Shown here piece by piece: positions 6,342-23,294 of a stretch of 64,000 bases of DNA. A program made the translations under genes and the position numbers. Source of the stretch: Convolutriloba macropyga (taxonomy: Eukaryota); NCBI RefSeq assembly GCF_964194025.1, contig NC_134477.1, forward strand, positions 14,570,001 to 14,634,000, given 5' to 3'. How positions within the stretch are numbered: the stretch's first letter is position 1; each line of letters begins with the position of its first letter. The notes under the pieces are model-generated. The model was not told the DNA's origin and did no database searches. It worked only from the letters and a program-made list of their open reading frames with translations.

Positions 6342-8743
6342 ACCCGTGGTAATCCGTTTATTACAAAAAGTTCGCGAACACCTAGATGATGTCATATTGA
6401 AAAGTAGAAAGTTTTGTTCCTATTTCATTCTAAAGAAGTCATAAAAATTCAGCACGTGAGCGAACGTTAGCATATTGCGAGATGCCCATGCCTTAAGTTA
6501 TAATTTATGCGAAAAAGCTGTGCACATATTGACATCTTTTAGATTTCAAAAGGTAACTGTAAATATGACACAAAAAGCCCTTGAGAAAAAATTAAAAGGT
6601 TAAATTTTTTTTATTAATTGAAATGCTTAAGAATTTTAGCCGACAAAAGCAATCCTGCCATTTATAGCTAACCTTAGTGCTCTTATAATTAACTGTTCAT
6701 CTGCTCCAAATGTTATTATCACCTGATTCAAAGTATAAGTAATCAGTTTAACCTAGAATTTTTTTCCTATAGTAGAATTTGACTTATCTTTCACTCACCA
6801 CATAAATCGCAAATTAAATTTAATGCAACTCATAAAATTGTTTCAGAGACTCATAAACATTTGTCATTCGAAATTTGATTGAATTGTTACATCATTCTAA
6901 AAAATCTAAAACTTGCTTCTCGGCTCATTCTGAAGTTCAGTTGGTGATGCCTGCAAACCAAGCATTAATTTGCTATCAAAAACCAAATCTGTGAAGAAAA
7001 CCGGGTTTGGTGTCAACTGCTGTCACCCAGATATTCACTAATGCTCCACTGAAAGACGGTGGTGGTGGTTGAAGAATGCTACATCACCGTTTTATAGTAT
7101 ACATACAAAGTTCGGATCTATTTTGTTTCGCCCAACCCCCCCCCCCCCCCCCCCCCCAGTGTTTTGACCTTCAGTTACAAATTAAATGTTGTTATTATAT
7201 GCACGTTACTATGTAAGAAAATAGCACGTGCGCCTGGTGGTCATACAAGATTTTTGCTCACTAAGCTGGGGGGGGGGGAACAGAATAGATCCCAAAGTGC
7301 ACTAGTGGAAATACTCTGTGACACTAGTTACACAATAGAGGGACGATAGTGGTACATTAGAGCGACGTTCATGGGTACTTTGAAAAAGAGTTTTAAGTAC
7401 CCCATACTCAAATAAAGCGCCAATTAGACCATAAATGCTATTAAAAAATCGATAACATTATTTCAACGTTCAGGTTTAATGGTTGAGAATCATGGTTCCA
7501 TGTTATGAGCGTTGACCTGTCAAAGGGTGCTTTAAAAAAAGTTCAAAACTCAACTGTTATTTTTGAGAAAGAAAGAAAACATAGCATTTTCAGAACACCT
7601 TAGTTTTCATATAACAACCACACAACCTGCTAAAACAGAATTGTTGACAAGTTTGTAGAAAAATTAATTTCAGAACCTTTTCGCTCATTTCCTGTGAAAA
7701 TAATTAAAAAGTTTAAATATTTTACTAAGCAAGTTTTTTGATGACTAACACTTCCACTTCTTATGCAATTGAAAGCTTTACTGTCAGTTATGGTTTATTT
7801 TGCAACAATATTTGACTAGCTGTAACACTTTTTTTGGCTAAATTCGTACGAAATTCAAAATCAGTCGAACTTTTTTCTCGCAGGATATACTAAAATTTCC
7901 GATAACAAAATTTTCAATGCAATTGTGACTTTGATTATTAGTTCCCACTAGGTCAGCTTCATAATTATATATGTTTTTATATATACACCGTGACCGTGAC
8001 CTGATCTAGCGAAGAAGCTACAAAAATTCAAAGGCACTAAGCTTTCACCAAAATGACGAAATTTATTCAGGTTCTGAATCTCAGTTTTTCATAAACTGTA
8101 CATTCAAAGTTACTGCAGGCAAAACATTATTTATTCAAAATATCCGCAGCATTTTTCGTGGAGCAATTTTGCTGATTAACGACTATCTGAAAAAGCAGGG
8201 CCGTATTCCTCTTCCCCATTTGAATCATTTTATCATTCCTGAAAACAGGCACTTTAAGGCTGAAAAATCACTCACAAGCAAGTTTTTGATCAATGACAAC
8301 GTTACCATAGCCCCTAAGTGATACATTATAGGCCTTTTCCTGGAACAAAAATTGGTTTCACTAAATCGACAACTGAATAGATTGACTTTTAAATCTGTGA
8401 ATTTTTATGTCGTGAGTGACATTTCAATTAGCACTAGTGAATATTAAATATAGTTTAGAGGAATAATAATGCATCACTATTGTAGAGTAATGAACACCCA
8501 ATCCGGAACGCTCAGAAACAATGATGACCATAGCTGTACTGCTTATGTTATGGTCACATTTTTTGAAGACTAAAATTGAATACACGGCAGTAAATATTTT
8601 TTTTTGCAAATTATGCAAGTAGTTTTTACACAAAAGAAACCTTAGTGCTAGTTTGCGAGGTGCACGAAAGAGAAAAAATTTGACGGTGGAATGCTTGTCT
8701 TGCCAAATGTTTGCTTACATAAGTAGTAAGACCAAATTCACGG

Positions 8744-8832
8744 TTTGTAACGGGGGAGGGACGTCCCCCCCGTGACGATCCGTGTACACGCTTTGTAACG
8801 GGTGGGGACGTCCCCCCCGTGACGATCCGTGA
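8744..8832 (+). repeat. Two 48-bp GC-rich hairpin units at the Maverick terminus (mirrored at ~23178-23272)
   Basis: tttgtaacggg..ggggacgtccccccgtgacgatccgtg twice. Each unit is self-complementary around GGGACGTCCC. Confidence 0.85.
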
Positions 8833-8849
8833 GGTACATTTTTGAGGTC

Positions 8850-9140
8850 GAAAAACTTTGTCTCTCAATTTTGGCAGAGGGACAAAAACTTGTAAAAATT
8901 TCTCGATTTATGCCGGGGACAAAAAATTTGAAACTTTCTCAAATTTATGGGGGACAAAAACTTGTAAAATTTTTGTCAATTTTGTGCGGTGAGAAAAACT
9001 TGTGAAATTTTTGCCAATTTTGTTTGGTGGGTAAAAACGTAGGATATTTCCAGCTATTTTGTGCGAGGGATAAAAACTTGTAAAAATTTCACAGTTTTGT
9101 GGAATTAATGAAAAACTTGAAAAAATTTTGCAATTTCTTG
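8850..9140 (+). repeat. Subterminal ~35-40 bp tandem repeats of Maverick TIR
   Basis: About 8 degenerate units of ggacaaaaacttgtaaaaatttct..aattttg, mirrored at ~22870-23160. Confidence 0.85.
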
Positions 9141-20267: not shown

Positions 20268-20286
20268 TTTCTTTTGCTATTTAATT

Positions 20287-20625
20287 CTAATCACTCTCTG
20301 AGAATTTTTTTGATTTTTTGAGACTGCAGCTACAACTTTGACCATTCGTTTCTAAACTGGAACCAGGCTGCAACTTCTTTTTGCCAGAGCTGCTCTGCTC
20401 GTTCGCAAATTTTGAGAGAGGAGGGATTCTTCTAATAGCATCAATATTTTCTCCCACTTGCTCCAATTCCTGTATTGAGAGAGTGAGTTTTTGGTTGAAA
20501 CGAAATTCGTTGTCTGGGTTTTCTTTTTTGAAAAGTTTCAGCGATATATAGGTTCCAGTATTATCATATGTTTTCACACAGGCAACCACATATCGTTTTT
20601 CAGAATGCGCTAAGTTTTAGAACAT
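20287..20625 (-). CDS. PC4/Sub1-like ssDNA-binding protein, 5' end disrupted at the arm boundary
   Basis: KRYVVACVKTYDNTGTYISLKLFKK...EFRFNQKLTLSIQELEQVGENIDAI parallels the PC4 pattern (RYVSVRDF...IDIREY...GISL..EQW..L...I..I). Upstream reads ATG TTC TAA. Confidence 0.6.
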
Positions 20626-23294
20626 ATTTTTTTATCTTTCGATTATATAGAAAAGCTGACCAAAAGTTTTCACGACCTGACAAACTAACACAACAAATCA
20701 TTAACTGCAACAGTGTCTTCAAAGTTTGAACATGTCTCCGGTGGCAATTATTCTGAAAGAAGAGGCCAATCCCGATTTGAGAACAATAGCATATGAAACT
20801 TACAAAAAGAGAAAGTTGTTATTGTTAAACAAGAGTTGCGGGACAATGAGAGGGTTACAATTAACCACATGGCGCTACCAATGGTAATTTTCGACTACAT
20901 TCAGTCATTCAGATTTGAAAAGGCGCTGATGAAAGGAGCACAGCACACGATCGATCATGTTAGCGGTTACGTAAGAGAATTTGTTTTCAATCCAGAGACG
21001 ATATATGAAAATGTTAGGGAAATTCTTTACAACTATGATATCAAAGAGATTTCTCTATACGAAAATCAGGAGGGCTATTGGAGGAACCTGGAAATTATCG
21101 ATAGTTTTTGGCGGATTCCAAATAGCCCCGAAAGTCCAGACATTACGATTCGGTCAATTTCTCCCCTACCAGACTCAACGCCAACTCCCTCAACTCCCAA
21201 GGTAGCGGAAGTTTCCATAATTGCCAGCAGCAGTCTTGAGACGCCACCAGTGAGCCTTTGCTTTGCACCAAAGAAACGAAAACTTGATATCAACTTCTAA
21301 TACTCATTTAAAGACATTGTTTCTTTTGTTTCTGAGATCTTCTAGTGTGAAATTTATTTTGTTAGTATTGTTTGTTCCGTGTTATATAGCCTAACATTTC
21401 TTTCCATTTTTCGTCTCAACGCACATTGTTCCACTTGAAATTGAATTTTATGCTTTCACTACACTTTCAATTTTTACACAGTAAAGACTATGCACATTCT
21501 ATTGAACGCACTATATCGTGATAGAAATCAAAGTATTCTTGAGACGACGACATAATACTTTCTTTTTAAACAAAAATTCAAACTTGTGACCACACCTTGT
21601 CTTTGACAGTAAAACAACACTTGTTCAAACATGTGCGAGACAGTAAAAAAACTCGAACTCGACTGACCAATCAGAGAGTCAGAGACGAGCACACTGAATT
21701 GCTTATGGTAATAAAGGAGACCACACCTTGTTTTTGACAATAAAACAACACTTGTTCAAACATGTGCGAGACAGTAATAAAACTCAAACTCGACTAACCA
21801 ATCACACTGAATTCCTTATGTAATTGAAAGACACAAGTTGGCACATGTAGTAGACAAAACAATTCCTAAAACTCGGCTAACCAATCACAAAGGCCGAGAC
21901 CAAAACTTGCGAAACAAAAACTCAAAAACAAACTTTGTCATATGCACAAGTTTAAAATTAATCTTCAGTCAGCTCTCAGCAAATCAGAGGTCGGCAAAAC
22001 AAGTCCAGATTGGATAAAAATAGATAAACATTATAGACATACAGCTATAGTTATTGTTAGTGCTATGAAATTAATAAGAGAACAAAAAATAGAAAACGAA
22101 AAATACACTGCTCATACAATCATTTCGCCTAAGTTACGCAGTAAAATTCAGTCGCACATCAGTTTTTCCAGTTAAAATTTTGTCATTTTTTATAATTTCC
22201 CAAGTTTTACACTATTTTACGTGATCACATTTGCATTCTCCCTCAAACACCTCGTGTTACACAATTTACCGGTCTGCACCTATTGTCATTCACATTGCAA
22301 AACAATTTGTGCTTAATGGAATTGTTTTTGTGGAAGTCATTTCTCGATTTCTAAATCTCCCGTCATTTAAACGTGGTAGATGAATTGCTTTACCATACAT
22401 TTTCAAACACTTTTTCAGTACTTTTTCGGAACGTTTCACATAGTTTTGAGCATTTACTTTGTCCGTTTCATACGTATATTTCTTCCTTATTCTCTGCAAA
22501 GTTGCATTCTTTTCACCTCTGACGCCGCAAACTTACCAGACACAAAAATTCTCAATTTGGAGCCCTGGCACTTAAGTTTTATTGGTTTTCTAATCTGCCC
22601 ACACTCCCTAATCTGGGATAACATATGGTCAATAAAACTATCAAATTAAAACCAGATGTTGGATCAAAACCAGCAAGATTGGACTCCATTTTGGTTTAAA
22701 TGTAGATATATGAGATGAAACTTATAGAATATAGACATAAAACTTATCAGGAGATCGAAATAAAGAAAAGGTAAGTCAGTTATATGTTTTTCAAAAACCC
22801 ATAAACAGTCTGTTTGACTAAAAAAGGTTTAAGAGTTTTTAAACTTTAAAATCAACTTAATGGACCCCAAGAAATTGCAAAATTTTTTCAAGTTTTTCAA
22901 TAATTCCACTAAACTGTGAAATTTGTACAATTTTTTATCCCCCGCACAAAATAGCTGGAAATATCCTAAGTTTTTACCCACCAAACAAAATTGGCAAAAA
23001 TTTCACAAGTTTTTCTCATCGCACAAAATTGACAAAAATTTTACAAGTTTTTGTCCCCCACAAATTTGAGAAAATTTTAAAGTTTTTGTCCCCGGCACAA
23101 ATCGAGAAAAATTTTTACAAGTTTTTGTCCCTCTGCCAAAATTGAGAGACAAAATTTTTCGACCTCAAAAATGTACCTCACGGATCGTCACGGGGGGGGG
23201 GGGCTCCCCACCCGTTACAAAGCGTGTACACGGATCGTCACGGGGGGGGACGCCCCCCCCCCCCGTTACAAAGCGTATATTTAGGCTTACTACT
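20611..23294 (-). repeat. Right inverted arm (TIR) of Maverick, ~2.68 kb
   Basis: Reverse complement of 8722-11561, with two deletions of tens of bp relative to the left arm. Confidence 0.93.
20732..21300 (+). pseudogene. Right-arm copy of the 191-aa arm protein, frameshifted near 20810
   Basis: Translation matches 10875-11450 with several substitutions; the frame breaks in the A-run near 20805-20815. Confidence 0.75.

Follow-up and report, generated by a model that had tools for sequence, protein, structure and literature searches.

How does a viral element that keeps its own capsid and integration genes multiply when it has no polymerase? The question is raised by a Maverick/Polinton of Convolutriloba macropyga, found in a 64,000-nucleotide stretch of contig NC_134477.1 (positions 14,570,001 to 14,634,000, forward strand; hereafter the window). 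The element occupies 8722..23294 of the window, contains no N letters and has the hallmarks of its group: terminal inverted repeats (TIRs) starting with AGTAGT at 8722 and finishing with ACTACT at 23294, and a 6-bp target-site duplication (TSD). An initial annotation had described the intact ends and perfect TACATA TSD, together with the absence of a terminal-protein polymerase (pPolB) and a Walker-A packaging ATPase, and all of this holds: six-frame translation of the element shows neither a Walker A nor a pPolB motif, a profile built from the genome's own pPolBs has no match in it, and its ATPase coverage is 0%. In published work pPolB and the ATPase are core Polinton genes, and where genes are known to be missing it is mostly those of the virion module (PMC4028283, PMC8097293). 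We conclude that the element belongs to a polymerase-less lineage that is probably a capsid-competent satellite Maverick, having captured the replication origin of a helper and using the helper's pPolB in trans.

The loss of pPolB is a trait of this lineage, shared by many independent insertions. Thirty-one polymerase-less relatives of the 12-15 kb type were opened (20 picked by end or capsid similarity, then 11 more); pPolB is absent from all of them, and 18 have both end motifs and a TSD of their own. The pPolB profile matched 4/4 controls and nothing inside any element across 63 loci, and it detected no remnant in the long TIRs, a lone weak match (L109) lying outside the element. Searching the genome with Pfam PF03175 led to a distant Maverick group (integrase about 30% alike) and not to the relatives; the related pPolBs, missed by Pfam, were located through their capsid neighbours and have the Exo I/II and Pol A/B/C motifs. 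In one of them (L072:6361-9900) weak Pfam matches point to a C2H2 finger at the N-terminus and an insert resembling endonuclease VII. Five young copies of subfamily B have TIRs only 0.2-0.8% apart, and in one young B copy a full series of open reading frames (ORFs) fills the space between the TIRs, leaving no room for pPolB. In complete families, whose gene order is otherwise identical, orf195 and pPolB come last, on the right, and the TIRs are 100-310 bp long, whereas in the short elements orf195 is inverted at the left and the TIRs measure 1.1-2 kb, their inner edge lying within the start of the PC4-like gene. Outgroup families likewise have orf195-pPolB on the right together with short TIRs, so the pPolB-less layout is derived. 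The dependence on a helper for the polymerase, proposed in the initial annotation, is well supported, and the insertions without pPolB are many and independent.

Capsid, protease and ATPase genes have diverged under purifying selection between the polymerase-less subfamilies. The ratio of nonsynonymous to synonymous substitution rates (dN/dS) between subfamilies A and B is 0.06-0.11 for the major capsid protein (MCP), 0.13-0.18 for the protease and 0.18 for the ATPase, and it is 0.02-0.27 inside subfamily B (one pair). The predicted structure of a relative's MCP (94%; pLDDT 89) is matched by Foldseek to the Sputnik MCP (E 3.5e-16), and also to those of PBCV-1 and mavirus.

The polymerase-less elements have four end types, A1 (that of the window), A2, B and C, each of which is also the end of a different complete pPolB family: HA1 (L117/118 and the right arm of L102), HA2 (17.7-17.9 kb), HB (17.4 kb) and HC (19.0 kb), respectively. 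Over the first 90 nt the partners are 85, 93, 90 and 91% identical, against 53-78% for non-partner satellite-helper pairs, and over 40 nt the values are 91-96% against 61-80%. The likeness stops at nt ~95-133 in A and B, and at ~480 nt on the left end in C. The left terminal module of the window copy is 93% identical to the pPolB-side end of L102 over nt 1-133, and its likeness to L117 is also gone by nt 133. The C/HC end (L063:1986-2200) folds into a long, near-perfect hairpin, far longer than that of the A or B ends. Facing end pairs of 12-15 kb account for 21/26 (A), 17/32 (B) and 17/30 (C) among the first 100 of 119, 153 and 118 matches, most pairs being typed by size only; in two pPolB families taken as controls this size class makes up 0/18 and 1/36, the second value counted in 100 of 132 matches.

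Each short family might have arisen by ordinary deletion from the complete family with matching ends, as the common ends and a B/HB block from the DEDD exonuclease-like gene to the penton gene, 97-98% identical, would suggest. This block is an exception, and partner genes are otherwise 46-87% alike at the DNA level. A tree that makes every subfamily the sister group of its end partner was rejected for 8/8 genes (approximately unbiased test, p(AU) <= 0.01), so that simple deletion from the end partner was discarded as an origin, and all short families have the one derived layout described above, with inverted left orf195 and a long TIR reaching the PC4-like start. We consider such an origin extremely improbable.

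The initial annotation had seen in the window copy a capsid donor lacking both ATPase and polymerase, either half of a bipartite virus or a stable defective class. The missing ATPase appears instead to reflect a single deletion private to this copy and no trait of the lineage, an outcome that the annotation had itself set against its proposal. Sister copies contain ~2.2 kb between the points matching window 13544 and 13553, and the deletion took orf81, orf91, the packaging ATPase, orf99b, orf230 and the 5' part of the integrase. In relatives the ATPase is a protein of 239 aa with GPSGCGKT and a PF04665 match over the cut-off (E 1e-5); among the 31 relatives it is covered to at least 90% in 29, to 43% in one and not at all in one (E10). 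E10 has both ends and a TSD and is thus a second ATPase-less copy, and the deletion in the window copy preceded the first duplication of a 1,125-bp unit (1.6-2.8%; see below) and could fall on either side of the insertion in time, so that this one molecule may have integrated already deleted. However, the breakpoints of E10 differ, and the three full-length matches to the junction (40 of 506 candidates scored) are all the window's own tandem copies. An ATPase-less family was rejected on the uniqueness of the junction and the ATPase sequence kept in 30/31 relatives: tabulating TIR-bounded relatives, as the annotation had suggested, returned many insertions without pPolB and no second one with this junction. 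Sequencing runs X1 and X4 cover the junction without differences (one sample, possibly the assembly's own, with <31 letters on one side) and X2 and X3 do not cover it, so the runs are uninformative. Contigs from runs assigned to other organisms yielded short pieces only. As to the bipartite form, the end partners are complete elements. Among 13 pPolB-bearing elements opened, 12 carry their own MCP, ATPase and integrase, the other being a deleted chimera without ATPase, and none is a segment with pPolB and ATPase only. A bipartite genome was accordingly rejected, and the capsid-donor proposal as a whole is very improbable.

Genes have evidently moved between these families. In chimera L101/L102 (G000:C1:10019048-10036370) one CTGGTG TSD encloses an A-type left arm and a pPolB-bearing right arm of HA1, which is compatible with recombination between short and helper elements before integration; the left arm has a five-fold tandem repeat, and capsid, ATPase and integrase are absent. 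In gene trees of the B/HB block (L067/L068 against L023/L024) HB nests with A and B, and helper HB may have acquired the block from satellite B. The HA2 ATPase (L103-L106) is 85-87% alike to those of A, B and HB, its neighbouring genes ~70%, and this looks like a single-gene exchange.

Such frequent recombination, with the integrase and TSDs that the elements possess, could be taken to mean that they are plain integrase-driven transposons replicated by the host, whose ends became common by recombination at the G/C-run repeats with no helper polymerase involved. Ends should then track the integrase, yet integrases are 92-93% alike among A1, A2 and B despite three different ends. The interiors of A1 and A2, including the integrase and the HUH-like gene, are 91-93% identical, yet their ends differ; the ends therefore go with the partner rather than with those proteins of the element that are candidates for binding them. 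A plain transposon also leaves purifying selection on MCP, penton, protease and ATPase unexplained, and every end type (4/4) has a pPolB partner, the likeness in A and B being confined to the terminal module. We regard this explanation as unlikely.

Replication by another route is conceivable as well, if the HUH-like protein nicked hairpin ends and a host polymerase copied the element by a rolling-hairpin mechanism, making pPolB dispensable. The N-terminal domain resembles Rep nucleases weakly but repeatedly (Foldseek, E >= 0.12 against PDB and 0.003-0.06 against a viral library) and has a weak match to VIA, the best by Z (3.1; rmsd 4.2, 78 aligned). In an alignment of 33 sequences H56 of the H-x-H motif is invariant and H58 occurs in at least 90%, the element ends can fold, and Rep-like nickases occur in some polisuviruses (10.64898/2026.10.13.758929). 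However, no conserved catalytic Tyr (motif III) follows H-x-H in the 33 sequences, and no helicase was seen. Ends and HUH-like genes are also uncoupled, C and HC having the same ends with genes 52% alike, and A1 and A2 different ends with genes 93% alike. The protein is no substitute for pPolB, because every pPolB-bearing family opened has it too, and the rolling-hairpin explanation is quite improbable; the protein may instead bind the origin. Its homologues are 111 unnamed proteins; IMG/VR, scanned with alignments of the HUH-like protein and the MCP, yielded no relative, and a phage collection gave no match.

The preferred explanation, a satellite copied by its helper, starts from the fact that protein-primed polymerases initiate at genome ends. 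The shared ~95-130 bp terminal module would be the origin recognised by the helper's pPolB, and with helper and satellite active and replicating in one nucleus, the satellite would be copied by its partner's pPolB, then packaged and integrated by its own proteins. Recombination in the shared nucleus would exchange origins and so switch helpers; recombination during co-replication would, in this proposal, account for the origin swaps, the B/HB block and the chimera alike. Two hallmarks of a satellite are present: its own replicase is absent across independent insertions, and its cis ends are common to a replicase-bearing element in 4/4 end types. In phi29, origins alone let the terminal-protein system amplify foreign DNA, with the terminal origin in cis and the polymerase in trans, as we infer here (PMC4150772), and it has been reasoned in a preprint that pPolB and integrase act on one end sequence (10.64898/2026.10.13.758929). 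On balance we lean slightly towards the fuller view of a long-lived satellite virus of Mavericks, with its own virions and integration and no replicase, that has switched helpers at least three times by capture of terminal origins.

Several points weigh against this view. dN/dS looks near neutral in the window copy (0.41-0.93) and, on few changes, in the closest B pair (0.2-1.9), as expected for mutations accrued since insertion; recombination blurs dN/dS, and helper lineages could be where part of the selection took place. The grouping of A and B is firm (HUH-like 92, protease 100), but support for a joint origin of A, B and C is weak, at 51 and 46 for two genes, and the integrase and penton genes reject it; the interiors of the long TIRs of A, B and C are almost without similarity. 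The AU test weighed three fixed trees for 12 taxa, with the MCP tree built by FastTree. Helper copies found amount to only two decayed HA1 and two HA2, against dozens of A ends. All loci come from one assembly and were taken by similarity rather than at random, most members of the size class being unopened.

In their AGTAGT ends, 6-bp TSD and TIRs, and in their RVE integrase, double jelly-roll MCP, adenain-like protease and (in relatives) A32-type ATPase, these elements resemble animal Mavericks/Polintons of the adintovirus type (PMC4028283, PMC8097293, PMC8502044). Unlike these, the lineage described here is without pPolB and has ends in common with unrelated pPolB families. In Pieris mannii and another insect group, TIR-bounded polintons lacking polB were amplified after its loss, their mobilization being left open; those elements are highly similar to complete copies and are tied to insertion of a long interspersed nuclear element (LINE) or a long terminal repeat (LTR) element (10.1101/2025.02.07.637071). 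The present lineage, by contrast, is old, diverged and under selection, has an empty slot in place of the polymerase, and is end-paired with four families. Tlr elements and Polinton-like viruses (PLVs) without pPolB share an integrase or capsid module (PMC4028283; 10.64898/2026.10.13.758929) and carry another replicase (superfamily 1 or 3 helicase, PolA, archaeo-eukaryotic primase or Rep). None of these replicases was found in the lineage here.

Adenovirus vectors deleted in E2B are polymerase-deleted genomes replicated in trans through their terminal origins. Such defective genomes differ from the present lineage, which is natural, integrating and self-packaging, and apparently switches helpers. 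Most satellites known to us borrow a capsid and keep their replicase. In non-autonomous DNA transposons of the miniature inverted-repeat (MITE) type, tips common with an autonomous partner point to the enzyme that is borrowed; here the borrowed enzyme would be the polymerase and not a transposase, and about 15 genes are kept. We found no end-matched satellite-helper pairs in the accessible literature, which included nematode, coral, adintovirus and anole papers; subscription papers, Repbase and supplements may hold precedents. The finding is a polymerase-less, virion-competent Maverick lineage end-paired with four complete families; amplified polB-less polintons themselves have been published once.

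Maverick replication has so far been inferred from gene content, and we found no origin-mapping paper. If our proposal is true, the swapped ~95-130 bp marks a polymerase-specific Maverick replication origin: the four natural satellite-helper pairs indicate the cis element, and four ends crossed with four polymerases would form a specificity matrix. That capsid genes are under selection in an element unable to replicate on its own speaks for a genuine virion stage and for co-infection. The proposal also offers a candidate answer to how the polB-less insect polintons mobilize, and suggests that surveys seeded on pPolB overlook a class that outnumbers its helpers in this genome.

The window copy itself (Table 1) is an ordinary decayed insertion in which the ATPase loss, a TIR extension and a triplication are private lesions. 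Its inverted repeats (~2.85 kb) are 5.5% diverged, as is the family-length left TIR when compared with the right arm, and the insertion is therefore old; the extension, at 5.1%, is of the same age. The genes listed in the initial annotation match those of intact relatives, with integrase (PF00665 in an intact relative, E 2e-9, over the cut-off), protease and MCP confirmed, but they are decayed, and the interior is not unique because two extra 1,125-bp units make one region a triplication. These units are 0.4% apart from each other and 1.6-2.8% from the native copy; the duplications thus arose after insertion, and the second is recent.

Table 1. Features of the window element, in window coordinates
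Feature	Position	Strand	Remarks
Left TSD	8716..8721		TACATA
Left terminal module	8722..8854	+	AGTAGT and 47-bp G/C-run repeats, common to pPolB-bearing family HA1; putative replication origin
Left TIR, family length	8722..10671	+	~1.95 kb; 5' end of PC4-like gene at inner edge
TIR extension	10672..11561	+	Segment copied into right arm; among copies inspected, only in window copy; 5.1% mismatch
orf195	10875..11444	-	No family found in profile searches (Pfam, PHROGs); inverted at left end in polymerase-less elements, adjoins pPolB in complete ones
PLA2X-like gene	12352..12783	+	Presumed, following the initial annotation; no Pfam match
DEDD exonuclease-like gene	12777..13405	+	Presumed, no family match; one stop, one frameshift
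orf99a	13257..13544	+	3' end lost to deletion
Two tandem 1,125-bp units	13435..15684	+	orf99a end, deletion junction, integrase piece, penton 3' part, core 5' part
Junction of ~2.19 kb private deletion	13544..13553		Repeated at 14669 and 15794
RVE integrase	15797..16674	+	5'-truncated, frameshifted, one stop
Penton-like gene	16675..17526	+	Presumed, partly from position; no Pfam or PHROGs match; one stop
Basic core-protein-like gene	17527..17892	+	Presumed, no family match; one stop
Double jelly-roll MCP	17890..19188	+	Internal ~40-codon stretch unlike relatives
Adenain-like protease	19237..19605	+	5' part out of frame; PF00770 E 1.7e-6, over cut-off
HUH-like protein	19668..20267	-	H-x-H retained, conserved Tyr absent, weak resemblance to Rep fold; pPolB-bearing families have it too
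PC4-like gene	20290..20604	-	Presumed, no family match; parted from its start by TIR extension
Right TIR	20611..23294	-	Holds second, frameshifted orf195 (20732-21300, +) and terminal module (about 23156-23294)
Right TSD	23295..23300		TACATA

As in the window copy, tandem duplications of kilobase size are frequent in Mavericks of this genome (L069, L111/112, L113, L022). The genome also holds at least two further distant Maverick groups (L041-L060, L075-L080), one of which has protease and ATPase in a single ORF.

Elsewhere in the window, a host gene resembling superfamily-1 helicases (Walker A GVFGSGKS; DAFQGAEKE) has long exons at 27781-28878 and 35844-38819 on the minus strand, and fragments resembling reverse transcriptases of non-LTR retrotransposons occur on both strands at 42375-47733. 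Tandem duplications of 473 bp (24716-25688) and 385 bp (50885-51966) were noted, and envelope-like ORFs with a furin-type RTKR site at 61387-63673 (minus strand) are probably of LTR retroelement origin.

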